Shown: piece after piece, positions 1,665-63,461 of the stretch
Position numbering within the stretch: the stretch's first letter is position 1
How the letters are laid out: every line of letters begins with the position of its first letter
Notes under the pieces: model-generated
What the model was told of the DNA's origin: nothing
Database searches by the model: none
What the model saw: only the letters and a program-made list of their open reading frames with translations
Translations under genes and position numbers: made by a program
DNA from: Stegostoma tigrinum
Taxonomy: Eukaryota
Assembly: GCF_030684315.1 (NCBI RefSeq)
Contig: NC_081360.1
Location: 73,087,780 to 73,151,779 of the forward strand
Direction: 5' to 3'
DNA: 64,000 nt

Positions 1665-1933
1665 CTGATAGGCAGCAGTAGCTGCACTCCATGCAAAATC
1701 CTTTGGAAATTCTCCATAAATGAATTCATCTTCTTTCCGAGGTGGGAAGCCATTGCCATGAATTATTTCTGTAAAATAATGTGCTGACCTCTTTGGAGTT
1801 CTTTGTCTGTTAGGATCTTTGAAATTTACATGATGCAGTCCAAACTGAAAACTATAACCATTGACCCATTCGAAACTGTCCAGAAGGGATGTAGCTGTGT
1901 ATCCTTTAAGGTTAACATTATCCAACTTGTAAG
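1665..1933 (-). CDS. LCT: LCT exon 9 (end of GH1 domain III, start of domain IV); gene continues beyond the window start
   Basis: AG acceptor at 1935-1934, GT donor at 1664-1663; 269 nt, phase 1->0; translates AYKLDNVNLKGYTATSLLDSFEW...FPKDFAWSAATAAYQ; same length as recalled human exon 9. Confidence 0.95.
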
Positions 1934-3248: not shown

Positions 3249-4805
3249 CTTTTAGAGCCTCATTGATATACGTTTTGTAGAAGAATATTCTGTCAGTATC
3301 ATCCACAGTGGAAATCGGTTTTGTAGCTACTCCATTTCCAGTTATGTAAATAGGGGGATTGCTATACTCCTCTTTGATCCAGTTCAGAAGTCTTCTGAGC
3401 CCCCAGGCTGCAGCCCTGAACTTCTTAATAGCTGATGTTGGCCATCCTGGGTCAAATCCTTCAGCTGTGTCTCGATCATATTCATAAGAAAATGATTTCA
3501 GTTTGGCAATATTATGACTTACAATTTTCGTGGTGTATGTAGTGAGACAAAAAACATCTGCAGTACCACGGATAAAATTTTTCTCCTGCTCTGTAAACTG
3601 AGGAAGCCTTGAAGCTGACAGATGTTGCAGTTCACTCTTGTTTCCAACCTGCCATTTCATTGCCTCGGGATAATCACCATTTTTAAAAATGGGGTGTGCA
3701 AACCAGCCCAAAGTAAACTGCAGGTAGCGATCAGCTGCAGCCACATCCCGGAGATTATTAAATATCTTGGGTTCTGCCCAGTCTGCATTAAGGCTGATGG
3801 AAATTAAGCCTTTCTGAGTACTCCTGTATTTATCATCATATGTGTGAAAAGCTTTGGCATGAGCTTTTAGCACTACATGTGCTACTCTGTATGGAAGATG
3901 ACCTGGTTCATTTAAAGCTGGGGGAAAGGAGCTTGTGCCATATCCTTCCCAACTGAATACAGAGGGTTCGTTAAATGTGATCCAGAACCTAACCCTATCA
4001 CCAAAAGTTTTGAAGCAGTAATCAGCGTATGTATTGAACAAGCCAATCAATTCTTCTTTTTCCCAGCCTCCAATATCTTGAAGAGCCTGAGGTAAATCCC
4101 AGTGGTAAAGTGTTACCCTTGGTGTAATGTTGCTGGCAAGGAGGCCATCAATTAGCTTGTTATAGTAATTGACACCAGCTAAGTTCAATGATTCAATACT
4201 GCCATTAGAGAAAATACGAGGCCATGAAATAGAAAAGTGGTAAGTTTGAACTCTCAGTGCTCGAAGCATGAAAAGATCTTCATCAATTTTGTTGTAACTA
4301 TCACATGCAACATCTCCTGTATGACTTTTCAAGACCATATTAGGTGTGTGTGTGAAATTGTCCCATATACTAGGTCCTTTTCCGTCAGCATTCCACCCTC
4401 CTTCGATCTGATAAGCTGAAGAGGATGCACTCCACACAAATCCTTCTGGGAATGTGTCATAAAAAAATGTATCCCTTTCCATGTCCTCCTGGCCTGAAAA
4501 CTTCTCCCACACAATCTTAGCTTTAGAAGGTACTTCAGATGCAGGCAAAGCAGTTAATTTTTTAACATTATTGTTGTGAACAGTGGTCTGAATTAAGTAT
4601 TTCAAAGAACGATTAACAAAACCGTTATTCTTGATTATTTGTGTGTAAAGATATGCTGATTCCTTTGGCGTTCTAGGTCTGTTAGAATCTTCAAAATTCA
4701 CGTAATGGAGTCCAAATCGATGGTTGTACCCTTGTGGACCTTCAAAACTATCCATTAATGACCGTAGTGTAAATGCCTTCACATTGACATTATCTGTGAT
4801 AGAAG
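3249..4805 (-). CDS. LCT: LCT exon 8 (end of domain II, most of GH1 domain III)
   Basis: AG at 4807-4806, GT at 3248-3247; 1557 nt, phase 1->1; contains [38 protein letters not shown] and YITGNG. Confidence 0.96.
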
Positions 4806-6183: not shown

Positions 6184-7556
6184 CCTTTAGTGCTTCATTA
6201 ATGTAGGCAGCAATACTCTCTATCCTTATGGTGTCATTTATGATATCAAGGCCATCATATTCTGTTGGAATTCCATGCCCTGTTATGTAAATCGGAATGC
6301 TGGTACCCGTATACTCATGGGTAACAAAATTTAGTAACCTTCGTAAGCCCCAGGGCACAATGTATATCCAGGGTGATACAGTTGAGCGCCATGAATTGTC
6401 AACCTGTGGAAAAAAGTCTCCAATACGGTTGTAATCTGAAACGCATACTTTATTGGTGGTAGAATTGATTAGTCGAGAGGTGTAGTGACTGAGTCCAAAA
6501 AAATCTGAAGTTCCATTTATGTATTGTTTTTCCTTTTCTGTAAATGATGGAAAATGGACAGGGGCAGAAGGACATTCCTGATTATATTTTTTTATCTGAG
6601 CTTTTAAGGTTTCTGGATAGTCACCATTAACAAAGATTGGATGAGCAAACCAGCCCAACATAAACTGCAGGTATCGATCAGCTGTTTGAACATCTTCTGG
6701 CTTATTAGGAGATTTAGGTTCTGCCCAGTCTGAATTCAAAGCTATTCCTACTTGACCATGCTGCTGAGAGCGGTAGTTATTATTGTAAATGTGCCAAACA
6801 TTGGCATGGGCCTTGATTACAGAATGGGCCACCTTATAGGATGCATTAGTTGGATCACTGATTCCGGGTGCATGCTGTCCTGTGCCATAGCCAGCATAAC
6901 TAACTACCCAGGGCTCATTAAATGTGATCCAGTACTTCACACGGTCTCCAAAGGTAGCGAAACAAAAATCTGCATAATCACTAAATGCTTTTATGATGTT
7001 CTCATTCTGCCATCCACCAATATCTTGCAAAGCTTGGGGAAGATCCCAATGATATAGAGTTACCATTGGTTGAATGTTGGACTCCAACAGACTGTCAATT
7101 AACTTGTTGTAATAGTCTATTCCATCTTGGTTCGGTTTAGTCCAATTGCCTGTCGGGAAAATTCTAGACCATGATAAGGAGAACTTATAAGAGTTAATTT
7201 GTAAACCTCTCATTAAGTAAACATCATAATCAATTTTATGGAAGCTATCACAGGCAATATCTGCCGTCTGGTTTTTTTCCACTTTTCCCTCATGTGCAAA
7301 CCTGTCCCAAATATTTTCTCCTTTCCCCTGTTCGGCCCAGCCTCCCTCAATTTTAAATGAGGCAGTAGCTGTGCTCCATAGAAAAGTGCTGGGAAAAGTA
7401 CCAATCAGGAAGGAGTCCCTCTCTGCATTTGATTGTACAGAAAACTTTTCCCAAACAGTCTGATAAGCTGAAAGGCGAGATCTTCCATGAAACTGGATAT
7501 CACTGTTATGTTCTGCCAGCTCATCTTCACTTCCTTCTTCCATTGGAGAAAAGTTG
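6184..7556 (-). CDS. LCT: LCT exon 7 (GH1 domain II; corresponds to human exons 6+7)
   Basis: AG at 7558-7557, GT at 6183-6182; 1373 nt, phase 2->1; SAYQTVWEKFS...[34 protein letters not shown]. Confidence 0.96.
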
Positions 7557-7929
7557 CTGAAAACGTGAGATAAAAGAAAGGTTAAACCACTTAAGAAATC
7601 CTGTTAACGCAAAACACTGAGCTTCACTATTTCAGTAAAGCGAGGATAATGCCTAGATTTGGATCAGAAGGCATGGAAGACTTACAGCCCAAACTTTCAT
7701 AGCTACTGCTCCTCCTCAGATATCTGCCCAATTAGAGCAGGAGCATATGCCAACCCAAATCACAGCTGGGATGGGGCAAGACAATATTAAAATATTTGAC
7801 TGGGCAGGCAATCACAGTTATTTTGCTCCAACTGCCCCTCAGAAAATCAGAACTCAATCTGCAGATCTGAGGATGGAAGCTGGAGGTCCTTAACAGATTA
7901 AAGATAGAATTCTTGCAACAACAGCTTCA

Positions 7930-12750: not shown

Positions 12751-12850
12751 CTTTCATTATCCAAGTTGCTTCTTTGATAATGAAGTGGCAAATGGTCCAG
12801 GAAGTGACTAACATCATAGCCAATCACTGACACTTCATTATTACTTAGAG
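12751..12850 (-). CDS. LCT: LCT exon 6 (human exon 5 equivalent)
   Basis: Pyrimidine tract plus AG at 12852-12851, GT at 12750-12749; 100 nt, phase 1->2; ALSNNEVSVIGYDVSHFLD resembles human AINKDQVLTIGFDINEFL; phases fit both neighbours. Confidence 0.9.
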
Positions 12851-13239
12851 CTTTCAGTGAGAGAAAAAAAAGTTAAGAATTGAACTTACAACACTTTGAA
12901 CAGAGATATGCAATACTTACTAAGACATAAATAAAACTCTATTTAGGATATTATATAACACTATTTATTAGATTGTTGGTTGTTAACAAAGGGTGAAATT
13001 GCCCCTGCCCAGGGCCACCAGTAAAATGCACCTAAAAGCAAAAAAAGTGTGTACAATCATTTCAATATACACGTAGATCAATATAATATGATTTGCTTTC
13101 TTAAAGCACACGTGTAGACAAATATGTGACTTGGATTGGAATGGAGTAGGTAGTGGTATTGGGGTTTAGGGGTTGTGCAGAGTCACAAAGGAGGCTTGAG
13201 TTGCCATCATGTCCAGGAAGTTGAAGAACCTTCACTTAC

Positions 13240-13354
13240 CTTTTACAACTTCAGTGAACTTAGCTCTGTTATACTCTGTGCTGCCTACGGCTGGCACAGC
13301 ACATTGTGAAAAGTCTAAGCTAAAGATCAAAATCTGTAAATGTTTGTTGATGCT
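13240..13354 (-). CDS. LCT: LCT exon 5 (human exon 4 equivalent)
   Basis: TTTTCAG acceptor (13356-13355), G|GTAAGT donor; 115 nt, phase 0->1; SINKHLQILIFSLDFSQC resembles human TIEPKVKVFIFNLKLPDC. Confidence 0.88.
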
Positions 13355-13645
13355 CTGAAAAGTGAAAAAATAAATTACTATTACTATATTTACTTGCCCA
13401 TTGCTTAGCAAACTGATCCATTGAAATCTGAATTGCAAAATATTTTCCAAGATGTCAATGAAGTTAAAAACATATGTTATTGTGTACAATAGATTCTATG
13501 CTACATACTTGTGTCAAGATAAACTTTTATGACTGTTAAGTCCAACCTTGGTCACAATGTACATAAAAGGCTCTAAACTCGGGAGATTTGAAGTTATATT
13601 ATCTGGGATGCCAATGCCATTAAAACAGGACAGTGATGACAGAAT

Positions 13646-13868
13646 AAAAACCGAAAGAAAAAAACCGAAAGAACTGCGGATGCTGTAAATCAGAAACAAG
13701 AACAAAGTTGCTGGAAAATCTCAACAGGTCTGGCATCATCTGTGAAGGAAAAAACAGAGTTAACGTTTCTGAACTTCAGCAGGCCTGAAATGTTAACTCT
13801 GTTTTATCCCTTCACAAGCACTGCCAGACCTGCTGAGCTTTTCCAGCAACTTTGTTTTTGTTCCACTT
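13646..13868. repeat. Self-inverted family B element
   Basis: Inverted arms about 13695-13769 and 13786-13862; TSD ATGACAGAAT at 13636-13645 and 13869-13878. Other family B copies at about 15119-15350, 24422-24590, 26497-26595, 28991-29090 and 32103-32206. Confidence 0.88.
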
Positions 13869-14040
13869 ATGACAGAATGTCTGTCAGTCAGAGGAGCTGA
13901 ATGTCTTCATGGTGATGATAGCTTTTCGACACAAATTTACACTTAAAAGTTTGAAGAAGTGCTGAATGCATTTATCCACATTTTGGTAGATCCATTATGA
14001 CACCACAAACAAGAGGCAGATATCCTGCGTTATATATTTA

Positions 14041-14357
14041 GGGCGGCACGGTGGCTCAGTGGTTAGCACTGCTGCCTCACAGCACCAGGGACCTGGGTTT
14101 GATTCCAGACTTGGGTCACTGTCTGTGTGGAGCTTGCACATTCTCCCCGTGTCTGTGTGGGTTTCCTCTGCGTGCTCCAGTTTCCTCCCACATTCCAAAG
14201 ATGTGCAGGGTAGGTGGATTGGCCATGTTAAATTGCTCAAAGTGCCCAGGGATGTTTTGGTTAGGCATGGAGAATGGTCTAGCTGGGATGTTCTTCAGTG
14301 GGGCGGTGTGGACTTGTTGGGCTGAATGGCCTGTTTCCACACTGTAGGGATTCTATG
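14041..14357 (+). mobile_element. V-SINE (HE1-like)
   Basis: GGGCGGCACGGTGGCTCAGTGGTTAGCACTGCTGCC head, same core and tail. Confidence 0.9.
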
Positions 14358-16335
14358 TTTATAACCTGTCTCTATGTCACAGTCATGCCAGGCAACTCCT
14401 GGCTCCCAACAACCAGCAATTTTAAATGCCTCAGGTAGGGGAATACAGATACATTTCAATTGAATGCATCATTGCCTTTCTGCAGTCCCTTCTGGAGTAA
14501 TTGATTGCAGTAGGGAAACCGCGAAATTTAAAACTGACAGCCTTCCCAATTCTGTAGAAGTCTTGGACTGATGCTGGTGCCCAGGCAAGGCTGTCTCAGC
14601 TGAAAAAGATTGCTGCACCACAGATGGCATGAGCATCTGTCCAAAATACCCTCTTCTCACTCATCTTGGTAAGTGGGCCGGGGTCAGGATTAGGATCAAG
14701 CTGCAAACAATAGTTGTGCAGAACCAAAACTTCATGACTATTCTGAACATGTGAAATCTCTGGAAATTTAACATTACGGACATTAAAAAAAAAACTACAG
14801 CCTGAAGTGGTCCTCAGGTTTATTCATAAATATTACAAGATTTTACCAGTGGTCACTAATGCATGAAAGAGGCGTTGAGACAGTTTCAACAACTGTCTGC
14901 ACTGTGACTGGCTCAGTTATTGCATCAGGTTCTGAATAAGGCAGTTGTTCAAATACAAAAGCCTTAAAAACTGTCAAAGTAGGTTTAACTACTGAAAGCG
15001 TTGAGTAGTACTGAGTAAAATCAGTTGGGACCTTCACATAAATTTGATTATCTAGTTCCTTGAGATTGAAAGGTTGTGTGAAGAAGACTAAGTTTGACAT
15101 ATACATATGCACACACAACAACAGAAGTAGAAATTCCTGGAGAAACTGAGCAGGTCTGTCGGCATCAGTGGAGAAAAGGTGGAGTTAATGTTTTGAGTCC
15201 ACTGATCCTTCTTCAGAAGTATTCTGATGAGGAATCACTGGACACAAAACATTAACTCCACTTTTTCCCACAAATGCTGCCAGACCTGCTAAGTTTCACT
15301 AGCAATTTCAGCTTTTGTTTCAGATCTCCAGAATCCGAAGTTCTTTATTCTATGTTATTTAGATTAGAATATAGATTGTAGACCTTTACTTTGTTTGGTC
15401 GGTACTTTTTATTTTATATCAGTACATTTAGAATGCTTACAACCAATTTTTATCAATTTCCACTAATAAAGATACATTATTTGTGATGAAAAATACTTTC
15501 CCCCAATTTCTGGAAAATGATCTGAAGGTTTTATAAACCAATAGCTGAATCTTCCCTGTTTTTTTGTTTATGAGACCTAACCTGTTTTCCTGCACCATCA
15601 TCTTGAACCCACCTCATTTACAAGCTATCACACCCCCGTGGTAGCCCTCTCATCACATGCTAGTCCAATTCTTCTGCTTGCTGTAGCCAGAAGGACTGAC
15701 CTCTGCTAGGGTTTCCTGAGATATACTAGAAATACACAAGTGCTGGGGCCACATTTAAAAGGATATTGTACACGCAGTCTAATGTTCAGTTTTGCAAATT
15801 TTTGGCTGTTGTTGTGCTACTCTCCAATTACAACTCACTGTGTATTTGATGTTAAGAATGATTACATAATGTTTGCATTTCTTTGTTTGCAAGAAATCAT
15901 ATATTTTCATGTTAATGACAAAATATGGAATAACAATTTTTGAATTCCATCAGCTAATTGTAATATCTGAAACATCCATGGACTGAAATACTTTTTAGAA
16001 GGGAACAAACATTGACTGGAAATGACTCAGCAAATTACTGATTATACAGGTTAGCCAAGATTAGGAAATCATTGTTGAATAAACCAAATGATCTGAACTG
16101 AGATTGACATTGTATCAGAAGGTACCAAAGCCAGTCCAACAGTCATTCATGAAGGAATCCTGTTTCTGCTGTTTTGACTTAAACCTGTATGATTAGTTTC
16201 ACATACTGGAGATGAAAGACTTCATCAAGCTTGGAAACATTGAACTCAGGCATAGAAATGCACACATTAGCTTGCATTGCATGGAATTGCTTTTGGTACA
16301 ACTAGGGAGATTGTGACTGCAGAACTGGAGATACA

Positions 16336-16383
16336 TCTCTCTGTCACTCTCTCTCTCTCTCTCTCTCCCCCCCCCTCCCCCCC
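16336..16383. repeat. (TC)n microsatellite followed by a C-run
   Basis: Directly visible. Confidence 0.9.
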
Positions 16384-16776
16384 ACAGTCTGCCTCTCAAA
16401 AGATAGAGTACATGGTGACTGCTCAACTTTGAAAGAAACATGCAGACATTGAGAAAGTAGCAAGATCTGCAATATTTGCTACTGTCGAAGATACTAGACA
16501 TTAATTAAGCAACAGTGGTCTAAGTTAAACCATCTTTGTAGCCAAGGTTAGCAGATAATAAAATTGCTCTTTCTTTTACTCAACAAAATCTTGAAATTGT
16601 CTCTTACTGATACAATAAACTTTGAGTAACTACATTTTTATGAGAAAGAGGTACAGCTGCATGCTAAAAAAAAGTGCAATCTTTTTTACAGCCAACCAAG
16701 GCAATTGAAAAGCAATGAGCCAATTAACCCTTGCTCAACCCACCATAACAATATTTTTATTTCAAATGAACGGTAC

Positions 16777-16848
16777 CTTCACTTTTGCCAGTTTTTCTGA
16801 TACGGAATCTCTATTTGCTTTTAAGGTTTCATCCCTTAAGGAGTCAAT
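16777..16848 (-). CDS. LCT: Probable LCT exon 4 (extra exon; second half of human exon 3 equivalent)
   Basis: TTGTTCTTCCAG acceptor, AAG|GTACCG donor; 72 nt, phase 0->0, open; IDSLRDETLKANRDSVSEKLAKVK ends like human NEASLRQKLSKLQ. Confidence 0.65.
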
Positions 16849-17567
16849 CTGGAAGAACAAAGATTTCTGATCTGTTACTGGGCAGAAAATTCTATTACAA
16901 AATTATCAGATGTTAAGGTTTTGTGTTAACCATGTGCAGAAAATCTCCTACCAATTCAGTTTTACACTTTATTTTAACAGACATTCCAAATCTCAAAATT
17001 ATAATTTTAAAGGTAAATTTCAACTGGATTCATTTATTTCCGCTGTGGTTAGAATTGAGTTTGCTTTACATGTAAATAAAGTTCCTGATGCTTGGATTTT
17101 ATAATAGTAGCATATAGATGGGCTACAAAAAAAAAACAATGTCAGACAATTATTCTGGAACAGTGTTGTAATTCAGTATGTGTTAGCGAGAAGGGACATT
17201 CTGGCATGTTAATGGAAAATTAATTTTAAGTGTGATGGTTTATGTCAGGTAGGGTATACATTGAAGATCATTAATTTTTTTTATTCATGATAATCAAGAA
17301 TTGGCTACAGCTTAGAACTCTCAGAAAGTGGAAGCTTTTAGCATAGTTTGGAGGAGACCTGACTGGGGTCTCTCCTATAAAGAAGTATCGGATAGTTCAG
17401 GGAAAGCACAATACTTGAGTGAAAATGTGTGGAAATGAGTGGAACTTCCAAACCAGGAAAGAAACCTGCAGGTTATGAAAACCTGACAATATCAAAGCTG
17501 TTTGCTTTGTGAGTATCCATTTAGGAAGACTTCACAGTTTACAAGAAAGTATTGGTTGGTGAGAATC

Positions 17568-17849
17568 AATGGCTAGCACGAGGGGTCATAGTTTTAAGCT
17601 GGTTGGTGGAAAGTATAGAGGGGATGTCAGAGGCAGGTTCTTTACGCAGAGAGTTGTGAGAGCATGGAATGCGTTGCCAGCAGCAGTTGTGGAAGCAAGG
17701 TCATTGGGGTCATTTAAGAGACTGCTGGACATGCATATGGTCACAGAAATTTGAGGGTGCATCCATGAGGATCAATGGTCGGCACAACATTGTGGGCTGA
17801 AGGGCCTGTTCTGTGCTGTACTGTTCTATGTTCTATGTTCTATGTTCTA
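17568..17849 (+). mobile_element. 3' fragment of the same CR1 subfamily
   Basis: Identical by eye to 11909-12190, including the (TTCTATG)n tail. Confidence 0.95.
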
Positions 17850-18656
17850 ATTACATTGAACCTAAAGATTGTTGCAGAGTGGTAAGTTCTTTGGATTTGT
17901 GTATCTCAGTTCTAATGGGTTTGTTGCAAAACAGGAAGGGATTTTGTTTGGATATGCATTTTAAAGACTTTTCACATTGTTTCACATATGTTGATTATTT
18001 TAGTTTTCACATTTTGCGTAGTAAACTTCTGTTCTGTTGTTAACAAATCTCTTCAGCCTTGTGTGACCATGTTTCAGTGGTTGACGCCATGTTAACTTAA
18101 ATAAGAAAAACACATGTGATCCATCAAGCCAGGTTTTTTCTGGAATCTGATTTGTCCGCTAGTACCATCAGCTGGGATCATTGTATTGTATGAATCTTGC
18201 CTGACGTTGAGCCCATTGTCAGAGTACAGAGAGAGTGTTTGACTGGTTAACTGCATTTGGAAGAATGGAAAATCTAACGAGCCGATGCCATGCACAAAAT
18301 CTCACAGTCACTAGTTAGGTTAGTGGAGAAACACTGATGACTGTTAATGCCAATGATATGAAGCACCCTATATATTTGACCAGAGGTGGAAGCCTAACAT
18401 TTTGAGAAATAAATGTTGAATTAATTGTTTCCAACTGAAATATTCCCTATATTCTAAGTTTATATAACATTTACCATTTAAGGTATTTTCTTCATGATAT
18501 CTAAAATGAATTTAAATTCATCTTTATGTCTTGGTGAATATCCAAGTATTTGTGAAAAGAAATATATCTTTGTTACCTTAGAAGGTATTTTATCTATAAA
18601 TAAATATTCAAGTATCATTATTTACTTTTTTTTCTGTATGACGCCTTACATCTTAC

Positions 18657-18713
18657 CTTATGATTTGATAAGCAATCATCTGATACAGCAACAGCAATCA
18701 AATCCATCATTCC
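18657..18713 (-). CDS. LCT: LCT exon 3 (first half of human exon 3 equivalent)
   Basis: TTTGTTTCCATTTACAG acceptor, AAG|GTAAGA donor; 57 nt, phase 0->0; GMMDLIAVAVSDDCLSNHK resembles human DTVDFLSLDLSYEC. Confidence 0.78.
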
Positions 18714-20276
18714 CTGTAAATGGAAACAAAGTAAGTTACTATCCAATTTCTAAATATACTTAATTCTTCCTGAAGCTCCCATCTACACTTTTATAACTCC
18801 TTCCAAAAGACTTATGATGCAATAATCATTGTCAAGCCCAGATGAAGCAAACATTATTTGATTGAAAAATCATAATTTTTTAAAGAGTTTACACCTTCCA
18901 CATTTCACTTGAAATAGAGTGCATGGAGTGGATGTTATGAGAATTAGAGAGTCACAATGACACACAACTGGGAGTTTCCCATGGAAGATGTGAATTTGGA
19001 GTTCAGGCTGTGTCAGAGTCACTGTCTCACCTCTAACTCCATGTTGCCAAAATTTTGAGATCCCCACAGCCTAAAAGACATGTCTGCCATCCAATTATGA
19101 AGATCTGAGATGGAAAAAAGGGTTGATTGCTAAACGGGCAGATGAAAAATCTCATCTTTGCACCTATTCACTCCAAGTTAAAGCAGACAGGATAGGAGAC
19201 CCACCTCCTGGGTCCCCATGGAGAAATGTCCAGGATGTGGACAAAAAGGTGTGACAACCAAGGAGAAATATAGCAAAAAAAAACTATTGTTCCCCAAAGA
19301 TTTTGTTTAATTCCAAAAAGCGTCAAGGCTTTGTGTTCCTTTTTATTGTTTATGAATGTATATGTTGCAATCATAAATTAACCACATTGTGAGCTAAAAT
19401 GATAATCTTAAATGGGTTGTTAGTATAATTCGCAGTATATTCATGATTATTCAATAAGTGATGGCAAATTACAGAGTCACGTTCAAAATTATATGTTACA
19501 TTCTGAGTCTTAAAACATCTACTGGTAGAGTGTGATCAATACTTAGTCTTTTGCAAATTACCAGAGGGACATGCTGTTTGATATGATCAATTTGTTATTG
19601 GAACATACAGCCTGCATATCTGGCAGACTGAGCCATTTGTTCACTATGCAGACTTGATGCCAAAATGAAGCACATTAAATGTACTCTGATCAGAACACTG
19701 CTTATCATGTATCACGCATACATATGAATGGGCACATTTTGTCCCTAACGTGTGCATTCTACCTCAAACTGCCCTTCAGGAGCAAGGTTCTTCAATAATT
19801 TGAGTAACAGCTGAAGCTAGCCTTAAAAAGCTGCCAGAACACAGAAACAATACATCAGATTTTTTATTTTCAAATTGCTGCGAACAAGCATAAGATAGAT
19901 TCTGCCTACCACTTGAATTTTGGTGCTAGTGTGATGTTTTCTGATGCATTTTCCAGAGCAATGTCCTAAACAATCAGCATCAATTAGCCAACCAATCAGC
20001 ACCTTTTCCTTAAGAAATATAAACTACTGCACCCTCTGATGTTGGGCATTCTTGCATCTGTCCTGATGAATACAGGATGAAAATTTTCAATATCATGCCT
20101 CTTTTTTCTCAGCAATATGCATTTTCTGGATTAATTAAAATGTAGTTGTGTTTATGTCACCTTAACTGTAAATGAACTCACAAAGTGCGATCACAAATTG
20201 TGCATATTACCCAACATATCATGAAAATAGCACCTGTCAGTGATCTGCTAATAAAATCAAGATACAAACAATTGTC

Positions 20277-23200
20277 TTAGTTTTCCTGCCAGTTAGGAGT
20301 GAAACTAAAAGATGGGACCTCACAGATAGTAACCTCAGGATTTCTACCAATGCCAGGTGCTAGCCAGAGTAAGAATGGCAGGATAGCTAAGACGAATACA
20401 TGTCTTGAAGAATGATGCAGGAGGGAGCGATTCACATTCCTGGGACTTTGGAACTGGTTCTGGGGGAGGTGGGACCAGCACAAACCAGATGATCTTCACC
20501 TGGCCAACACTGGAACCAATGTCCTACGGGGACTGTTTGCTGGTGCTATTGGTGAGGATTTAAGCTAACATGGCCAGGGGATGGGAAGCAATGCAAGAAG
20601 TCGGAGAGAAGTGGGGACAGAAACAAAGGACAGTAAGGGAAAAAGTGAAAGTAGAAGGCAGAGAAACCAAAGACAGAAATCAAAAAGGGCCACATTTCAC
20701 AATAATTCTAATGGGCAATAAATGTCAAAAAGAAAGCCTGAATACTCTGTGTCTCTATGTGAGGAGCATTTTTAATAAGGTGGATGAATTAACTATGCAA
20801 ATAGTGACAAATGGATATGATGTAATTGGGATCACAGAAACCAGGCTCCAGGGTGACCAAAGATGGGAACTCAATGTCCAGGATTATTTAATTTTCAAGA
20901 AAAGTAAAGGGAGGTAGGGTAGTGTTGGTGGTTAAGAAGGCGACTAACACAATAGTAAGGGAGGACATTAGCTTGGGCATTGTGGAATCAGTATGGGTGA
21001 AGCTGTGGAATTCCAAAGGAAAAAAGACATTAGTAGGAGTTGTGTACAGACCACCAAACAGTAGTCGCTGGGGACTGCATCAGACATGAAATTAGTGATG
21101 CATGCAGTAAGAGTACAGCAGTTATTATGGGTGACTTCAATCTACATATTAACTGGACTAACCAAACTGGTAGCAATGCGATGGAGGATCATTTTTTGGA
21201 GCGTGTGAAGGATGGTTTCCTCAACAATGTGTTGATGAACAATGAAAGACCAAGCCATCCTAGACTAGGTATTGTGTAATGAGAGATGATCAATTAGCAA
21301 CTTTATGATGTGAGATCCTTTGGGAAAGAGTGACCATAACATGGTAGAATTCTTCATTAAGATGGAGAGTGACACAATTAAATCTGAAACCAGTGCCCTG
21401 AACTTAAAGAAAGCTAACTTTTACAGTATGCAGCATGCAATGGCTCGGATAAACTGGCCAAAGATACTTTAAGGGGTTGACAGTGGATAGGCAATGGCAG
21501 ATATTTGAAGAACACATGGATGAACTTCAACCATTGTATATCCCCGTCCGGTATAACAGTAAAATGGGGAAGGTAGCTCAACCATGCTTAACAAGGGAAA
21601 TCAGGAACAGTGTTAAAGCCTAAGAGGACGCATATGAATTGGCTAGAAAAAGCAGCAAACCCAAGGATTGGGAGAAATTTAAAATTTAGCAGAGGAGAAT
21701 AAAGGGTTTATTTCAGAAAGGGAAATAAGAATATGGAAGTAAGCTTGTGGAAAACATATTAACTGACTATAAAAGCTTCTATAGATATGTGAAGAGAAAA
21801 AGTCAGGTGAAGACAAATGTAGGTCCCCTGCAATTAGAATCTGGTGAACTCATAATGAATAATAAAGAGATGGCAGACCAGTTGAACAAATACTTTGGAT
21901 CTGTCTTCACTAAGGAAGACATAAATAATCTTCAGGAAATGCTAGGGAACAGGGGTCAAGCATGGAGGAAGAACTGAAGAAGATCCTTATTAATCAGCAA
22001 ATGGTATAGGGGAAATTGATGGGATTAAAACCTGATAAAGTGCCCAGGACCTGATGCTCTGCATCCCAGAGTACTTAAGGAAGTGGCTCTAAATGTAGCG
22101 GATGCATTGGTGATCATTTTTCAGCATTCTGTAGACTCTGGAAGAGTTCCAGTGAACAGGAGGGTGGCTAAAGTAACTCCACTCTTTTAAAAAGCAGGGA
22201 GAGAGAAAACGAGCAATTATAAGTCGGTTACCTGACATTGGTGGTGGGGAAAAGCTGGAGTTAATCATTAAGAATGTAATAACTGAGCATTTGGAAAGCA
22301 GTGACAGAATTGGTCCAAGTCAGTATGGATTCACTAAATGGAAATTATGCCTGACAAATCTTCTGGAATTTTTTGAGGATGTGACCAGTAGAGTAGACAG
22401 TGCTCAATCAGTAGATATTAAGTATCTGGATTTTCAAAAGGCCTTTGACATGGTTCCACACAGGAAATTAGAAAGCAAAATTAAAGCTCATGGTATCGGA
22501 GGTAATGTATTGCCGTAAATAGAGAACTGGTTGGCAGACAGGCAGCAGAGAGTTGGAATCAACAGGTCCTTTAAAGAGTCGCAGGCAGGCAGTGATAAGT
22601 GGGGTGCGACAGGGTTTAGTGCTGGGACCTCAGCTGTTCACAATATACACTAATGATTCAGATGAAGGAATTGAATGCCATATCTCCACATTTGCAGATG
22701 ACACTAAGCTGGATGGTAGTGTGTGCTGTGAGGAGGATGCTAAGAGGCTGCAGGGTGACTTGGACACTGGCTGAATGGGCAAACACTTGGCAAATGTAAT
22801 ATAATGTGGATAAATGTGAGGTTAACCACTTTGGTAGCAAAAACAGGAAGGCTGATTATTATCTGAATGGTGGCAGTTTAGGAGAATGTGAGATGCAATG
22901 AGATCTGGATGCCATGGTGGAACAGTTGCTGAAGGTTGGCATGAAGGTGCAGCAGGGAGTGAGGAAAGCTAATGGCATGTTGGCCTTCACAGTGAGAGGA
23001 TTTGAGTATTGTAGTAAGGATGTCTTGCTGCAGTTATACAGGGCTTTGGTGAGGCCTCAGCTTGAGTGTTGCATGCAGTTTTGGTCTCTTATCTGAGGAA
23101 GGACATTCTTACAGTTGAGGGAGTCTAGCAAAGGTTCACCCGATTGATTTCCGTGATGACAGGACTGACATATCAGGAAAGACTCGGTCGATTCGGCTTG

Positions 23201-23606
23201 TACTTGCTGGAATTTAAAAGAATGGGGTGTGGGAGTCTGATAGAAATGTACAAAACCTGATGGCACTGGTCAGGCTAGATGCAAGAAGAATGTTCCCAAT
23301 GTTGGGAAAGTACAGAACAAGGGGTCACAATCTAAGAATAAGGGGTGAGCAATTCAGGACTGAGATGAGAAATAATTTGTTCACTCACAGACTTGTAAAC
23401 TTGTGAATTCTCTCCCACAGGAAGCTGATGAGACCAATTAATTAGATATACTTGAGAGGGAGTTGCGTGTGGCCCTTGTGGCTAAAGGGATCAAGGAGTA
23501 TCGGGAAAGGGCGGGAATGGGATGCTGAGATTTTATGATCATATTGAATGGTGGTGTAGGCTCGAGGCATTGAATGGCCTATTTCTGCTCCCATTTTCTA
23601 TGTTTC
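20277..23606 (+). mobile_element. Decayed CR1-like LINE (ORF1 esterase C-terminus, ORF2, 3' end)
   Basis: ORF1 remnant ...SGFLPMPGAS...DDLHL...GEDLS* (stop 20566-20568); ORF2 pieces GITET, MGDFN, LDFQKAFD, FADDTKL with stops and frameshifts; tail TTCTATGTTTC. Confidence 0.93.
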
Positions 23607-23681
23607 ATTCAGTATTGGCCTTGAAGCAATACCTGCACTATTTAACTAATCCATAGTGTAATTTCAAGTCGCCTATTGATA

Positions 23682-23765
23682 GGAAGGGTCTCGGCTCGAA
23701 ATCTTCCTGCTCCTCTGATGCTGCTTGGCCTGCTGTGTTCCTCCAGCTCTACACCTTGTTATCTA
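23682..23765 (+). repeat. Family A short element
   Basis: CTGATGCTGCTTGGCCTGCTGTGTTC core; direct repeat CTATTGATAGGAAGG at 23673-23687 and 23763-23777; further single copies at about 28700-28783 and 30277-30364. Confidence 0.85.
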
Positions 23766-23859
23766 TTGATAGGAAGGCATTGGCAAATGTTTTGTAACAC
23801 GGTCACTTTTGGATAGATGCATTTTCAAAAGGAACAAGCATTCAAGTTTGATATTTCAC

Positions 23860-23945
23860 CTCATTGATAAGTTGCCGAAATGGCTGGAACATATCATCTG
23901 TAGAAAAGACGCCGTTAATGTTCAAAACAATAGACAATGTTCCTT
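23860..23945 (-). CDS. LCT: LCT exon 2
   Basis: TTTTTATTTGCAG acceptor, GAG|GTGAAA donor; 86 nt, phase 1->0, matching the exon 1 phase; EGTLSIVLNING resembles human GGKLSVVLRAE. Confidence 0.85.
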
Positions 23946-24859
23946 CTGCAAATAAAAATAACAATGAATCTAGATTCAATTCTGTGAAAGATTTTACATT
24001 TGTTGCCACTTTACCATTGACAATTTCCAAAAGATAGCACAAAATTGCTGTTAATACTGATTGCTAACCACTTGCATTTATACAGCTCCTTTTCTGTAAT
24101 AAAATCTCCCAAGAAGCACATTAGAAAGTACACTTTGAATCAATTGTAAAATTAAACCGTTAGTCATACCTGAATCAAGGAAGGCATGAGGAATTTTATT
24201 TTGTTGAACTTTAATAAACTGTCATACATCAGGATTCTTGACCTTAGACTTTGACAAAAAAGAGTGTGATTATTATTGCCTTGTATTTACATGACCATAA
24301 TCATGTAGAGGATTAAGTATTGCACAGCAATATTACTTCACAAAATAAGATAAATATGGATAAGGACATCATTTGACCAGTTCTATCTCTCCCATCTTGA
24401 AGAACTACAATTTCTTGAATAAAAATAGAAAATGCAAAGAAAAAACACTGAGCAGGTAAGGCAACATCTGGGGAGTGAGAAAAGGTTTCTCAACCAAACT
24501 AAAGTGTTAACTCTGTTTCTCCATCTGTTGAGCTTTTGCAGCATTTCCTGTTTTTATTTCAGATTTCCAGCAGACGCAGCATTCAGATTTTTTTGATTAT
24601 GAACTGTTGTTGCTTCTACTCTTTATACCTTGCATAATTCCAGGGTTTTCAGGTAATTCCATGTATTAGTCATTTTTACTGAAGAGCTTCTTGATATTAT
24701 AATATTTTGCTTTGGTCAAATGGTAATAATTCTGCCTGTGTCAAAGTTTTGAAGCATCCGATCCCAATCCACAAGCAAAATTCTGACAGCTGTTTGGGAT
24801 GGACTGGGAGGAGGGAAGACTGACATGTCAGCATTTGAAAACTACTGGCCTATAGTTTT

Positions 24860-27820: not shown

Positions 27821-28478
27821 CTTTGTGTTGCATCTCATTGTGATAAATTCCATAAACCTTTTCATGGGCACTGATTATATTCCTGATTGCCAAAGGTCCA
27901 GCGTGCTGCAGCTTATGTTTGGATTTTATTAATTCTGAAGGGTTATCAAATGTTATCCAGGTTTCAACTTTATCTCCAAAAGTTGCAAATGCAAATCGCA
28001 CGTAGTCCACAAATAAATCAACAAGTGCTTCATTCTCCCAGCCACCATATTTTTCAATCAGCTCTTGAGGCATGCCACTGTCATGCAGAACCAGCAAAGG
28101 TTTGAGATTTGCAATTATTATCACATTTAGGAGATTTGAATGGCATTTTATTAAATCATTATCCATTTTATCAGATGTACCTTCAGGCAGAATTTTAGTC
28201 CAGGGAAGGATTACTTTGTAATGGGAAATTCCTTTTTTATGTAGATTGGAAAGGTAATCTTTTAGGTGGCTTGAAAGAGCGTCCTGGCAAAAGTACTGTG
28301 CCTCCTCTTGCACACTGAAGTTGTTCTTCTGGTCTTTCTTTTCATCTTCTGCTAAATTCTTCACCAGAACATTTGTCAATGGACCAGCGATTACCATAAA
28401 ATCAGACGATAATTTTATTTCTGCATCAGACAAACCTATAAAAACTATGAAGAAGAAAATACTCCTGAGCGGCCCCAT
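27821..28478 (-). CDS. LCT: LCT exon 1 (signal peptide plus degenerate GH1 domain I)
   Basis: ATG in strong context (AAAATGG), hydrophobic signal MGPLRSIFFFIVFIGLSDA, FMVIAGPLTN, ISHYKVILPWTKILPEG, FATFGDKVETWITF; G|GTAAG donor at 27820-27819; 658 nt. Confidence 0.93.
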
Positions 28479-51844: not shown

Positions 51845-53144
51845 CATTCCGTTAGCCTAGATGGTTACCTGCTGCACCTGTATGCTAGAATTATTATGTT
51901 GTGCACAAGTATCCCCAAGTCCTTTTGTGTTGCAGCTTTTTCTCCATTCATAAGTTATACTATGTATGCTTGCAAGACCAGTGTTTTATGCGATCGTAAA
52001 CTTACGGTTTTGTGATATTCTCAGGCCACATTACACACTTTTGCAAACTATTCCTGGAACACTGGTATGTAATTTCACAAAGCAGATTTGTCCTTTTGCT
52101 TGAAGAACCTTTTCTTGATTAGTTAAGAGGGACTCTTAGTGCCTATAAGCTAATCTGAGGGGACTAAAACCAGTGGAGTGACTGGGTGAATCCTTGGTGA
52201 CAAACAAGAGAAGCTTCTGCTCTTTGTCCCAGTTATTGGTAATGTTCTTTCTCAGCTGCAGACTTCAGAGACCTGCACAACTGGGAAGAAAATTAGAGGG
52301 TACGACGGTTGGAGAAGTACACATCGCAACATACCATAGTCATCACGTTGATGACATGACAGTTCTTCAAAATCTTGAGATTCCAGATGGCAGGCAAAGG
52401 ACTTAAGTTGTGTCATACCTAGACTACTCATAACTTCCTGAAAATATTAGGCATAAAATTGATCACTTTGATCCCTTTATGCTCAGGTATGGGAACTTAC
52501 TAAGCTACCTTCAATTTCTCCCAGTGGTAAATATGATCAACCACTGTCCACTCTTTAATGGCATTTTCTCATGGAGGGTTCAATTTAGACCAATCTTTGA
52601 AAGTCAAATGATAGAGCTGCCAGTCTGGGGTGTCAATTCAAGCTCTGCAACAGGGCTGGTTTGGCTATCGACTACACAGCAGAGACAAGACCAGGGTACT
52701 TTTCAGTAATATCTATGATGTAAGCCATTATCTTTGCCACAATCAAACAACTTCAGAGGAGAAAGTCGGCCCTGTCCGAAGTTAAATTAATGACTATCTC
52801 CACCACTACCATTTTTAAATTAGGCCGCACTCCAGATAACAAGAGAGTGTAAATATCCTCCACTGATACACTAAAACCTTGGCATTTAATGCACTCTCCT
52901 TGACATACGCTGCAGTTTGCATAAGTTTAGAGTCAGCTTCTATAAATATAGAATGGGGAAAAATGTTTCAGCCTTCAGCTGATTCTTTTACAGTCACTCA
53001 GACAGATAACAGTTACTCTTTGGAGGTGCCAATGACATCTTAGATGTAAACCGGAGATTGTGGTTGGTGGGATGGTAGACAATGCAAATTTACCTGTATT
53101 AAACTACATTTTACAATGAAACAACTGAGTAACTTGCACGTTAC

Positions 53145-53300
53145 CTTCCTCTAGTTTTCGGAGATGAAGGACGATAAGATTGGAAATCTTGTGATATTCT
53201 ACAAAAGACAGCCTCATTGTGAGTTTTGGTACGTCTTCCTTGATACTGTCTTCAGAATGGCCGTTCACACCATTAATGCCATTTGGTATATCTGAAGTCC
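53145..53300 (-). CDS. MCM6: MCM6 exon 15
   Basis: 156 nt, phase 1->1; NGINGVNGH...RLSFVEYHKISNLIVLHLRKLEE. Confidence 0.93.
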
Positions 53301-54239
53301 CTGTCCAGAATAAACATTTATTAGTACACAGGGTACTAGATCCCTTTGTTCTAAGGAAGCACTGTAAGTATTCAGCAATAGTAAGATAAAACAAATCAAA
53401 ATGAAGTTACTAATAATTTACTGGCATGATCAGTAAATAATTAGCCTTTTAATTATTAAAATGAGTAAAAGGTCCATGCAGCAACTCATCAAATCTTAGC
53501 CAGAACATTTAAGGAAAACAACTTCAAAAGTGTGTGCCTATATGACTATCTCAAAACTGTTGAGTTCTTTTATACACATTCCATTCAAAACATCTAACCC
53601 AGGCCTTTTCCATTGGGAAGCAAAGAGAGAAAAAAAAAACTGATCTTTGGTACAAAGAATCCCGGCTTTGATAAAGCAATCTATTAATGTCTAAAATTGC
53701 TCTTACTGTAAATTCTCTACTTTGTCAAATTTGATATTCCGAAAGATGCCACACTAACTAAATACCTACAACTCGACGGCCAGACATTATCTTGAAGCAA
53801 AATAAATCCAATATTACCACAAATACTAAAATCCTAACTTGAGATTATCCATCACACAGACAATAGTTTTACATTTGTTGCCCCAAACTTCAGACTTAGC
53901 TCACAAATTCTAAAGCATACTTATTTTGAAAGCTCTTTGTCAGTGCGCAGAGCATTGGCAATGGGCACTTTAAATTTTGCTTCAACATCTACAAAGGGTC
54001 AAACTAAGGGTTAAGGTGACCACAAAACAAATCTTTGCAGGTTAGAATACCAACTTAGTCACACAAGATCAAAGATCGAAGTGAAACTGATATACAATTT
54101 GGAAAGAAAAATGGTCTAACAGGAGAGAATTCAAAATTTCATCCACCCCTCACCAAAAGAATGCAAGTCCTAAGGTCCTGCAGAACAATCAATCGTACAA
54201 AATTTATCTGTAAGAATTTTTAAAATTTATTAATGTTTT

Positions 54240-56930
54240 GTGGGCATCACTGGCTGGGCAAGTATTTATTGCTTGCCCTCAATGCCCATGAGAAAATGGT
54301 AGGGACCTGTCTCCTTTCAATGCGCCAGTCAGAATGCTGTAGGTAGACTCTCAGACCTGTTAGAGGGGGAACTGACACAACACTGAAGGACAACGATATA
54401 TTTCAAAGTCTGTGTGCTGAGTGGGTTTGCTGAGGGGTATTTGCAGGTGGAGGTGCTCTCATTTATCTGCTGCCCTAAACCTGACAAAAATGGAAGTGCT
54501 TCTGGGTTTGGAAGGTCAGTACTAAGGATGGAAGGTGAACTGCTGCAGTGCATCTTTTAGATGATACACACTATAGCTAATGATTGAGTGTCAGTGGTGG
54601 AAGGAGTGGATATTTGAATTTGGATTTGTTCTGGATAGTGTCAAGCTTCTTGAGTACTGTTAGAGCTGCAGCCAACCAGGCAAGTGGGGAGGATTCCATC
54701 ACACTCCAGATTTATGCCTTGTAGGTGGGTTTTGATGAATTAGGAGGTGTGTTGCTTACAATATTCCTAGTGTCTTTGCGCCACGTATGACTTCAGCCAG
54801 TGTAATTCCCTCCCACCCGATTCCCTTTAGCTCCAGTTTTGCTCGGGTTCCTTGATGTCCTAATCACTTAAATGCAACCTTGATGTGATGGGCAGTAACT
54901 CTCACCTCTGGAATTCAGCTCTTTTGTTAATGTTTGAATTAAGGCTGTAATAAAGTCAGGGGCTGCGAGGCTCAGATAAAACACAAACTGCATTTGAGAT
55001 TAGATTGTTGCGAGTATGTTACTTTACTTTTTAAGAAGGCTGAAAGAAGAAAACCAGGGAATTATTGACCAGTTATCCTAACACCTGTGGTGCAAAAATG
55101 CTGGGAAACTACAATGAAAGATGGGCTAACTGAACACCTCCAAGATTCAGTTAATCAGGCACAGCCAGCACAGATTCATGGCGGGGAGGGCATGCCTGAA
55201 AGACTCTAAATTTTTTTTTGCAGAGGTGACTAAGGCATTGGACAGGGAATGGTCTATGGATGTTGTTTATATAGAATACAAAAGACTGATGGCTAAGATA
55301 GAGGCAAATGGAATTAAGAGCAAATAAAAAAATTAATTATAGATAGATGAGCTATTTCCACTGTTTGGAGATTCTAGAATTAAGGGGCATAATCTGAAAA
55401 TTTGTGGTGGATCATTCAGGAGAGATGTGAGGAAGCACGTCTACACAAGTGTGGTAGATATGTGGAATTCTTCCACAAATAGCAGTTGATGCTAGATCAC
55501 CTGTTAGTTTTAAAATCCGAGATGGATAAATTTGTTAAGCAAGAGGTACAAAGAGATATGGGCTAAAGGCAGGTATATAGAGTTAGGCCACAGATCATCT
55601 ATGATCTCACTGTTTTGCCATTAAAGACTCGAGGGGCTGAATGGACTACCCCTATGCTCATAAGCATGTGCCATGTGGTAACATTGTTGATGAAATCATC
55701 CATATCTTCCATCGTTTTACTGATAGAGAGTAATCTGATAGGGCAGCAATTGGGCAGGTTGGATTTGTTCTGCTGGGTGCACACAGAGGTACCTAGGGAA
55801 TTTTCTACATTGTCAGGCAGATGCATGTGCTGTAGCTGTACTGGATCAGAAGTGTGTTAAGTTCTGGAGCACAAGTCATCAGTATTATTTCTGCAAAAAT
55901 TATGAACCTTGACAGCATTCTAATGTCCCATGCCTCCAATCACCTTTGTATCATAGACTGAACTGAATTAGCTAAAGACTGGCATCTATGATGCTGCGGG
56001 TTTCTGCAGGAGGCTGAGATGGATCATCCAGTTGGCACTTCTGGATGAAGACTGTTGCAAATGCTTCAGTCATATCCTTTACTCTAAATGCACTGCACTT
56101 CCCTATCATTGAGGATGGGGCTATTTGTACAGCTTCCTCCCATCATGAATTGCTTAATTATTACCACCATTCATGATGGGATGTGGCTGAACCGCAGAGC
56201 TTAGATCTGATCTACTGGTTGTGGAAATGCTTAGCTTTTTCAATTAGTATGCAAGACGCCCTGTTTGTAGCTTCAGTAGATTGACACTACATGGTGGATG
56301 AGTCCAACGCCGTTCCTGGCATGCCCGCTGCACTCTTCATTAAGCCTGGCTTGATGATAATAGAGTAGGGGCTATGGCAGGCCACAGTGCCTCCTAGATG
56401 GCTAGTCTTGAATTACTAGATTTGTTCAAAGTTTGTCCATTTAGCATGGTGATACTGTCAAACACAATTGTATTCTCAGTAAAGGTGGGACTTTGTCTCC
56501 ACAAGGGCTGCGTGGTGGTCACTCACTGATAAGATGTATCTGCAATAGCCAGACTTGAGGGGATCAGGCCAAGTACGTTTTCCCCTCATTTCAGTTCCCT
56601 CGACAGACCCAGTCTAACAACAATGTCTTTGGGACTTGACATGTTTGATTCATAGTGCTGCAGAAGAGCCACTCAGGGTGATGAAAACTGAAAACCCCTC
56701 CACCCAAGGTTAATTTTCTGCCATTCCCACCTTCAGTGCTTCCTCCAGGTTTTGGTCACTCAAGGGAGAACATTACATGATAATCAGCAGGAGGGTTTCA
56801 TATCCGTGCTTAACCTGGTGCCACAAGACCTCATGGGGTCTGGCATCAATGTAGAGGACTCCCAGGGCAACTCCCTTGGTCCCACGTACCACTGCGTGGC
56901 TGGTGCTTCTGGGCCTGTCCTGCCTGTGGG
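54240..56930 (-). mobile_element. Old LINE of a second family (minus), with a plus-strand CR1 fragment nested at about 55010-55660
   Basis: Minus-strand remnants (KSNLPNCCPIRLLS; HEVLWHQVKHG); its 3' end at 54242-54273 matches the tail of the SINE at 39663-39975. Confidence 0.65.
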
Positions 56931-57404
56931 ACAGCCATATGAAAGTCACAGCAGGTAAGGATGGAGTTTCCTTCCCTAAAAAAGATCCAAGTGAAGCTGT
57001 GGGTTTTTCCAACAATTGACATTGGTTTCAAGGTCAGCACTAGATTCTTAATTCCAGATTTTTGTTGAATTCAAATTGCACCATCTGCAATAGCAGGATT
57101 CAAACCCAGGTGACCAAAACAATACGTGGGTCTCTTGATTATTAACTGAGTGCTAGCACCACTTGTTCATTGTACACACGTGAGAGGATAAACTTTAAAA
57201 GGAAAAATATCAATACTGTATTTAACTTAGTTGAAAATTAGGGACATTTGAATAGGCCACTTGCTATGCCAACATAATAAAACGCAGAAGTCCAAAACAG
57301 ATTCTTAGAGACCAAGGTAGAGGATTGAATATCAACATGTACAGACATCTTAAACATCTGATTACAGATTATTCCTTTCTGGTGAAATTAAAAAGTCAGC
57401 TTAC

Positions 57405-57534
57405 CATTGTGGATTTCCTGCTCCATCTCCTCCCTCCCTTCATCATCTTGATCAAAATTTACATCTGGAGTTTCTACTCTAATGATTGATTTGTTCAGTA
57501 ACCGGAAAGCTTCCTTTACATGCTTAGGTTGTAC
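57405..57534 (-). CDS. MCM6: MCM6 exon 14
   Basis: 130 nt, phase 0->1; [29 protein letters not shown]. Confidence 0.95.
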
Positions 57535-58009
57535 CTATAAAGCACAAGTGAAAATTCAGGATATGTTCCTTTTTTGGTAGCACTTTGTTGAAAGTATATT
57601 TTAAGCAATCTTAAATCTCCTGAAACGTAATCAAAAGTAATAATTTAATAAAAACGTTCCATGCATTTTGATATAACACAGCAAACCATTACCATGAACA
57701 ATTTTACAGATCATCCAACTATAGCTGCAAATAACTGCCAGAAGAAGCAAGAAGAGATCTTCCCAGATCTCAGGTGGACTATTAAATAGTAAGCACAAGC
57801 AGCACAGTTTTCTCAAAATAAAAACCTAGCAGTTGAAAGGAAGTAGGCACATACATGACTTGAACATCAACTGTGTAGTTATCTATTATTATTTTGGCCT
57901 TAGGTCTGCTCAGTAAAAGTATCCGCGTAGCGCTAAAACATTTGAATAGGCGGTCGGTGTACTAAAAAACGTAGTCAGGTGATACGACTCATGATAGTTT
58001 GCGACAGTC

Positions 58010-59067
<1,058 letters not shown>

Positions 59068-59130
59068 CTAGAAAATTAAATCCTTGGGAAGTGATCACGA
59101 AATACAGTTTATACAATCCGCAGTCCATTA

Positions 59131-59286
<156 letters not shown>

Positions 59287-59331
59287 CTAGATCATAAAAA
59301 TTACATTACATTAATTTCCTTAAATTGTTTA

Positions 59332-59538
<207 letters not shown>

Positions 59539-59877
59539 CTAAAAATTGAAAAAAAAATTGTTTTAGATTTTAGCTTTTAATCCATTGAAGGAATATTTTC
59601 AAATATTGCAGTGTAACGCTGCAGAATGAAAGTGAAAATTAGAACAGGATAACAGACCTAGTGGGAGGGAAAAATAACTAAAATGAGATTGAATCTTAGT
59701 CATCATGTCTGATAAAATTTATCAAAGTGGCGAATACATTTTTAATCTGTTATCAAGGTAATGTGTGAATGTGGGCTACTAGCAGATACGAGCTAGAAGA
59801 AGGGAAAACAGTAGATATTGAAAGGAAGATCAGCAGTTATCCTCCATTTAGAACACAAGAAAAAGAATATTAAACAA

Positions 59878-60328: not shown

Positions 60329-60478
<150 letters not shown>

Positions 60479-62456: not shown

Positions 62457-62636
<180 letters not shown>

Positions 62637-63239: not shown

Positions 63240-63461
<222 letters not shown>

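Follow-up and report, generated by a model that had tools for sequence, protein, structure and literature searches.

The window, the whole 64,000 nt stretch of Stegostoma tigrinum (zebra shark) DNA that was analyzed, carries exons of the lactase/phlorizin hydrolase (LPH) gene, LCT, and upstream of them the 3' exons of an MCM helicase gene, whose P-loop and lid are encoded on the minus strand within 58807-63461. From synteny with the human gene order, we take the latter to be MCM6. The LCT exon at about 3249..4805 is 100% identical to P0002, a zebra shark protein annotated as lactase/phlorizin hydrolase-like, and the full isoform (P0148, 1979 residues) has four GH1 (PF00232) stretches by Pfam, a hydrophobic leader at its N-terminus and a hydrophobic stretch at its C-terminus. 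The mature chain begins with a conserved SEVPS-A-K-VW motif. Judged by sequence and gene order, this is the LCT ortholog beside MCM6; an earlier note on this DNA had named the gene LCT, and the identity to a named zebra shark protein and the MCM neighbour both bear that out. The exon borders have AG/GT ends and match joins in spliced contigs of two related organisms (X14 and X16). In these contigs (X14, records 9 and 11; X16, record 15), the segments 1665-1933, 3249-4805 and 6184-7235 are joined without introns, so LCT is spliced in these relatives. Features of the window are listed in Table 1.

Table 1. Features of LCT and its neighbour in the window, with the codons of domain III discussed in the text
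Feature	Position	Strand	Details
Domain III, nucleophile position	3337..3339	-	GGA, Gly (Glu in GH1 enzymes); residue 1310 of P0148
Domain III, acid/base Glu (TFNEP)	3967..3969	-	GAA kept, inside WITFNEP
Domain III, Asn of N-x-Y motif replaced by Thr	3541..3543	-	ACT in FCLTTY; only in the 4 sampled carpet-shark species
Domain III, Trp of WS motif replaced by Thr	1890..1892	-	ACA in TATSLLDSFEW
LCT exon: domain III end and domain IV start	1665..1933	-	AG/GT ends
LCT exon: domain II end, linker and most of domain III	3249..4805	-	open frame, AG/GT ends
LCT exon: most of domain II	6184..7558	-	nucleophile position GGG (Gly), 6280-6278
Stretch with further small domain I exons	12753..24063	-	
Small domain I exons (approximate borders)	23850-23950, 18654-18716, 16777-16870, 13238-13357, 12753-12842	-	
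First coding LCT exon: signal peptide and part of degenerate domain I	27821..28478	-	WITFDNP
3' exons of MCM helicase gene, upstream of LCT	53107..63461	-	same strand as LCT

The LCT introns within the window contain very high-copy repeats (2212-3231 and 5272-5679), as seen from read depth. A retroelement with reverse-transcriptase/GIY-YIG-like regions, presumably of Penelope type given its motifs, is present in two copies near 49-52 kb (48838-51851).

A second LCT copy was not found among the 17 and 14 best-scored candidates in the zebra shark genome, although a diverged paralog with small exons could escape such a search. The other scored candidates are Klotho-, beta-Klotho- and lactase-like loci, names that we assigned from their motifs, and no clear GBA3 locus is among them. 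One candidate (L021; G000:C43, about 34.72 Mb) is a small-exon GH1 gene with a lactase-like reading and an intact YVTENG. LCT is duplicated in other vertebrates, with two copies each in Xyrichtys and Mixophyes, and the changes described below might then be those of a redundant gene, where a second intact copy does the work, or of a gene that is becoming a pseudogene as a whole. This is very improbable, given that the scored candidates include no second LCT, that the intact domain IV is conserved more strongly than any other domain, and that spliced contigs are present in two relatives.

Four domain III codons had been singled out in the earlier note (3339-3337, 3969-3967, 3543-3541 and 1892-1890), and their states, places and minus-strand orientation were all correct. 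The frames that hold them are open and match Pfam Glyco_hydro_1. The first, within a 12-residue stretch of zebra shark LCT, reads GGA, and the nucleophile of domain III is indeed lost. Window positions 1600-7700 were compared with the reads or contigs of 4 of the 24 listed sequencing runs. Contigs of run X1 (sample S1) cover 3118-5341 and those of run X2 (sample S2) 3118-5343, both with zero mismatches, so that base 3338, which it had been proposed to verify in reads, agrees with the window. X1 and X2 are DNA runs of two samples from one study with the same organism label, and since the assembly may have been built from either of them, a state common to other species is the stronger proof: glycine is also found in nine of nine other galeomorph species. 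GAA and GGA differ by a single A>G change, as a sequencing or assembly error at base 3338 would require, but in the face of two mismatch-free DNA runs and nine further species the chance of such an error is negligible. It was rejected, as the note had also argued. Base 3338 is likewise absent among the X14 differences listed, a weak point because 430 further rows of the table lie outside that listing.

The additional changes that had been cited in support differ in value. Loss of the WS-motif tryptophan, which we take to be the sugar-stacking platform in GH1, is informative, but the threonine of FCLTTY and the serine of DSFEW say little about inactivity, because the former occurs only in carpet sharks and the latter is common in domain III proteins with both glutamates (e.g., Polypterus).

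Domain I has the motif WITFDNP and domain II has YITGHG, with glycine at the nucleophile position as in other jawed vertebrates, and the claim that domains I-III are all without the catalytic pair is therefore upheld, there being no Glu/Glu in any of the three. The exons of domain IV lie beyond the left end of the window in the same genome and contain TLNEP (L012:7072) and YLTENG (L013:8700); as a whole, the LCT exons are spread over the window and L012-L015. Both motifs, which the earlier note had advised inspecting, are intact with both glutamates kept, and its guess that domain IV holds the sole intact site was right. Domains I and II of mammalian LPH are also reported to be without activity (PMC7551416). 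The lamprey protein (P0129, Petromyzon marinus) has NEP and ENG in each of its three domains corresponding to II, III and IV, and a dead domain II therefore seems specific to jawed vertebrates. TFNEP is nevertheless kept in domain II of 20/20 elasmobranchs and, as this domain is long dead, a kept acid/base glutamate is no sign of function. Gene conversion from the glycine-bearing domain II was considered for domain III and is not needed: the codons are ACA GGG CAT in domain II versus ACT GGA AAT in domain III, and the flanks are of the domain III type.

LCT proteins of 21 cartilaginous fish species and lamprey were aligned; the group names used here agree with the gene tree. The domain III nucleophile position is glycine in all ten galeomorphs (Stegostoma, two Chiloscyllium, Hemiscyllium, Mustelus, two Scyliorhinus, Cetorhinus, Carcharodon and Heterodontus), and is glutamate in both squalomorphs (Pristiophorus and Heptranchias), in seven of the eight batoids, in the chimaera Callorhinchus and in lamprey. 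The remaining batoid, the ray Narcine, has glycine at the nucleophile position and aspartate in place of the acid/base glutamate. A free gene tree of domains II-IV (23 rows, 1373 columns) was built with Klotho and LCTL rows left out, so that paralogy is excluded by identity and synteny instead. It unites the ten galeomorphs (94/96, just below the starred level) and places Narcine among the batoids (100/99), which forces two Glu>Gly changes; the zebra shark protein groups with vertebrate LCT proteins in this tree, whose branching follows the species tree. The simplest history is a single GAA>GGA change on the galeomorph stem, which has an age of about 200 million years or more, and a second in Narcine. 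An alignment of LCT to date the change had been suggested and does so, with glycine in 10/10 galeomorphs and glutamate in squalomorphs and chimaera. What had been treated as an oddity of one genome is instead shared by a whole clade, and domain III decay of this sort has recurred elsewhere.

The WS tryptophan is present in the chimaera and missing in all 20 elasmobranch species, where its site is occupied by Thr (6), Ala (3), Gly (3), Arg (7) or Lys (1). Decay of domain III started before the nucleophile was lost, and Glu>Gly came late in the series. Among the galeomorphs, the asparagine site of the N-x-Y motif is Thr in the four carpet sharks, Asn in four species and Ser in two, and the asparagine of NEP is His in the two catsharks. 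Only three changes in domain III are fixed and galeomorph-specific, the nucleophile site among them. All 10 species retain the sugar-contacting Gln, His, acid/base Glu, Tyr and Glu-Trp.

Batoid domain III (P0009, P0159, P0160, P0161 and P0162) has its own pattern, with Arg or Lys for the pocket tryptophan and Ser for the NEP asparagine in 8/8, His for the N-x-Y tyrosine in 5/8, and the nucleophile kept in 7/8. The fixed basic residue at the tryptophan site could reflect an altered specificity.

Across the ten galeomorphs, 346/470 columns are invariant in domain II, 335/467 in domain III and 390/468 in domain IV; domain III is below IV (p = 2e-5) and close to II (p = 0.56), the p values being rough since columns are non-independent. 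Galeomorph domain III is constrained about as strongly as the non-catalytic domain II. Columns of the family core are kept somewhat more often in domain III (106/121) than in domain II (93/121; p = 0.04), an excess that would leave binding open but is no proof of it, domain II having been dead far longer. Tree lengths of domains III and IV were computed on a fixed species tree with an assumed topology, and gave a III/IV ratio of 1.66 for galeomorphs and batoids alike, against 1.28 for squalomorphs and 1.08 for amniotes. By this ratio there is no relaxation specific to the glycine clade: with seven of eight batoids retaining glutamate, the equal values of galeomorphs and batoids indicate a relaxation that is common to elasmobranchs and untied to glycine. 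Against X14, the differences listed include 20 silent and 12 replacement codon differences, corresponding to a dN/dS of about 0.16 (crude and uncorrected; six rows at 4102-4119, probable cross-matches from another domain, were dropped). Purifying selection thus continues.

An AlphaFold2 model of domains III and IV, based on a 95-row alignment, has a mean pLDDT of 91.4 and a pTM of 0.89, with no segment below 50. Its closest two-domain fold matches are Klotho and beta-Klotho (TM 0.79-0.82). Domain III alone is modeled as a (beta/alpha)8 barrel with a TM of 0.84 to human cytosolic beta-glucosidase, and structures of rice BGlu1 E386G are among its fold matches. Of 97 PDB sequence matches, the 60 best include no solved LPH structure. 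Being derived from relatives, such models show that the sequence is compatible with the fold, while stability and activity are outside their reach. Residues 14-57 and 420-439 had low confidence in a 32-row model of domain III, but this disappeared with 95 rows and is not read as disorder.

A wider comparison of 145 vertebrate LCT proteins gave the following acid/base and nucleophile residues in domain III: E/E in 103, Q/E in 28, E/G in 10, E/K in 2, D/G in 1 and D/E in 1, that is, 42/145 without the Glu/Glu pair. Domain IV is E/E in all 143 that could be aligned, and the remaining two are gaps. The set is bird-heavy, includes two species with two copies each, and covers the top-ranked part of 967 and 458 matches, so these counts are not frequencies across vertebrates. 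Left out were duplicates (P0002, P0004, P0011, P0025 and P0154), the misaligned P0014, fragments (P0163, P0169, P0179 and P0181), invertebrate matches, P0125 and further isoforms. A group of 120 shorter proteins yielded 106 domain III matches with a similar picture (40 E/E, 38 Q/E, 13 with other changes and 15 incomplete).

The Q/E form is seen in most amphibians, coelacanth, sturgeon, gar, bowfin and percomorph fishes. An NQP motif with the nucleophile kept is scattered over P0016, P0073, P0079, P0092, P0093, P0118, P0126-P0146 and others, and the acid/base glutamate is kept in bichir, lungfish, arapaima and carps. Such a patchy distribution of Glu>Gln at the acid/base site suggests repeated switching; glutamine there, together with a nucleophile glutamate, is the pattern of plant myrosinases. 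Two pit vipers (P0088, Crotalus; P0090, Protobothrops) have E/K (ITKNG), another independent loss, a Rhinolophus bat (P0117) has aspartate at the acid/base site, and NDP occurs in several models from livebearers/killifish and gobies, in some cases together with DNG. In P0014 (Leptobrachium), the domain order looks shifted, with an intact-type domain ahead of the II- and III-type domains, and the gene model possibly fuses tandem copies. Bivalve LPH-like proteins (P0001, P0003, P0013 and P0121-P0124) have five or more tandem GH1 domains, and the catalytic pair is complete in most of those inspected.

In GH1 chemistry, the covalent glycosyl-enzyme intermediate is impossible without the carboxylate of the nucleophile. 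Catalysis by GH1 enzymes is described as depending on a nucleophile glutamate and an acid/base glutamate (PMC10942382), and glycosidase mutants that lack the nucleophile are reported to have no hydrolytic activity (PMC6151457). Phlorizin hydrolase and lactase activities of human LPH are ascribed to Glu1273 in domain III and Glu1749 in domain IV, respectively, and human domain III is reported to act as an intramolecular chaperone, its removal giving a misfolded protein in the ER (PMC4586527). The domain III site is said to favour hydrophobic aglycones, with glycosylceramides as the supposed natural substrates (PMC7658089).

From the residues present, the gut enzyme of galeomorphs has likely lost its phlorizin/glycolipid-cutting site and been left with one working site. 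Domain III itself is probably a dead GH1 domain that is retained to fold domain IV. Its activity may already have been weakened or altered in the elasmobranch ancestor, where the tryptophan platform was lost, and a single A>G change would then have abolished the nucleophile on two occasions, on the galeomorph stem and in Narcine, probably at little cost. After removal of domains I and II, the mature shark enzyme would be a one-site glycosidase relying on domain IV, and domain III would be retained because domain IV needs help in folding and in reaching the brush border. It is for human LPH alone that the chaperone role has been described, and it is carried over to the shark by analogy. The earlier note had offered a structural or lectin-like role for domain III, of which the structural part is favoured by the chaperone function reported in human (PMC4586527), while the lectin-like part is disfavoured: these sharks have Thr, Ala or Gly at the tryptophan position, a variability that speaks against conservation of the sugar pocket.

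The loss had also been connected with the absence of milk, a link that fails because the site that cuts lactose is in the intact domain IV, and because milk-free birds, turtles and chimaera keep both domain III glutamates. A milk-free diet was rejected as the cause on the same grounds. A diet with few plant glycosides would be a parallel to the losses of GBA3 in mammals, often carnivores (PMC7360587), but other sampled carnivores keep both glutamates of LCT domain III and diet alone is insufficient.

Several observations weigh against this account. The sugar contacts and the acid/base glutamate are unchanged throughout the galeomorphs, the family core is better kept in domain III than in domain II (106 vs 93 of 121), the rate data contain no extra relaxation tied to glycine itself, and Klotho, although it lacks catalytic glutamates, is reported to have weak glycosidase activity (PMC10942382). 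Domain III could instead be a Klotho-like binding module, in which glycine opens the pocket and a glycan, glycolipid or peptide is held uncut, in addition to any role in folding. Fixation of glycine in 10/10 galeomorphs, the retained Gln, His, acid/base Glu, Tyr and Glu-Trp residues, the presence of the nucleophile site among just three fixed clade-specific changes, and the resemblance of the III+IV model to two-domain Klotho proteins whose domains each lack one glutamate would fit such a module. It is unlikely all the same, as the tryptophan platform is lost and its site variable (T/A/G), the N-x-Y (N/T/S) and NEP positions drift, the dead domain II likewise keeps TFNEP in 20/20 elasmobranchs, and overall constraint equals that of domain II. 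We regard as similarly doubtful the broader proposal that galeomorph domain III is a selected, Klotho-like binding module of the gut surface (or a natural glycosynthase) that arose separately in electric rays, with the recurrent changes of Glu to Gln, Gly or Lys being retooling and not decay.

Altered or residual chemistry, be it anion-rescued hydrolysis, glycosynthase-like transfer or a weak Klotho-like activity, is less probable still. Glycosynthases of the Abg E358G type are reported to combine an acid/base glutamate with a nucleophile glycine in this way, and such mutants can reportedly be rescued by azide, formate, acetate or fluoride (PMC6151457); the fold matches to rice BGlu1 E386G agree with this likeness. 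However, such reactions need an activated alpha-linked donor or a concentrated small nucleophile, neither of which, we infer, is known in the gut lumen, the tryptophan platform is lost, and in Narcine the acid/base glutamate has also become aspartate. Retention of a dead domain III for the folding of domain IV is the preferred account. The change is real, old, clade-wide and convergent, and is most likely the decay of a dispensable site on a structurally kept domain.

Shark LPH is like the mammalian enzyme in having four tandem GH1 domains, a signal peptide, a C-terminal hydrophobic anchor and an MCM neighbour, as described for mammals (PMC4586527, PMC7551416), with domains I and II non-catalytic and domain IV intact. 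It differs in that mammalian LPH has two working sites, whereas shark domain III is without the nucleophile and the WS tryptophan, and its phlorizin-hydrolase site is predicted to be dead. The same Glu>Gly change was reportedly engineered in domain III of rat LPH by Neele et al. in 1995, and lactase activity stayed intact; unlike that mutant, the shark substitution arose in nature, has become fixed in an entire clade and goes together with other changes in the pocket. Klotho and beta-Klotho also consist of tandem GH1 barrels that lack a catalytic glutamate, in what the models predict to be a similar two-domain arrangement, and Klotho KL2 is reported to be like shark domain III in keeping the acid/base glutamate while the nucleophile is gone (PMC10942382). 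In contrast to the shark protein, with four domains and a domain IV that is complete by sequence, Klotho has two incomplete domains, which function as FGF co-receptors; identity to Klotho chains is 37-39%, and the shark genome has separate Klotho-like loci. The GH1 glycosynthases Abg E358G and rice BGlu1 E386G share the nucleophile Glu>Gly change and the kept acid/base glutamate, but these are engineered enzymes with a full sugar pocket that use synthetic donors, and the shark likeness is one of sequence pattern. Mammalian GBA3 provides another example of repeated loss of GH1 activity on aryl glycosides (PMC7360587, as far as reported there), although in that case the whole gene is lost, while shark LCT loses one catalytic site and the domain stays.

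No description of the galeomorph Glu>Gly change was found in the open literature by title or the start of the abstract, a search that leaves subscription journals mostly uncovered and a mention in a supplement possible. What is new is a lactase with three of its four domains lacking the catalytic pair; pseudo-catalytic GH1 domains as such are already well known, dead ones are normal in the LPH family, and the effect of the finding is to that extent modest. It is usually supposed that the glycolipid/phlorizin site represents the old function of LPH and that lactose cutting is a mammalian add-on. The present comparison opposes this, with domain IV Glu/Glu in 143 alignable proteins and domain III altered in 42/145. 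EC labels for phlorizin hydrolase and glycosylceramidase that have been transferred to these shark proteins are likely wrong. Galeomorph LPH would be a naturally occurring enzyme with one site, so that domain IV and its substrate could be studied without interference from a second site, and chimaera, squalomorphs, batoids and galeomorphs together form a dated series for the origin of a pseudoenzyme domain inside a working enzyme.
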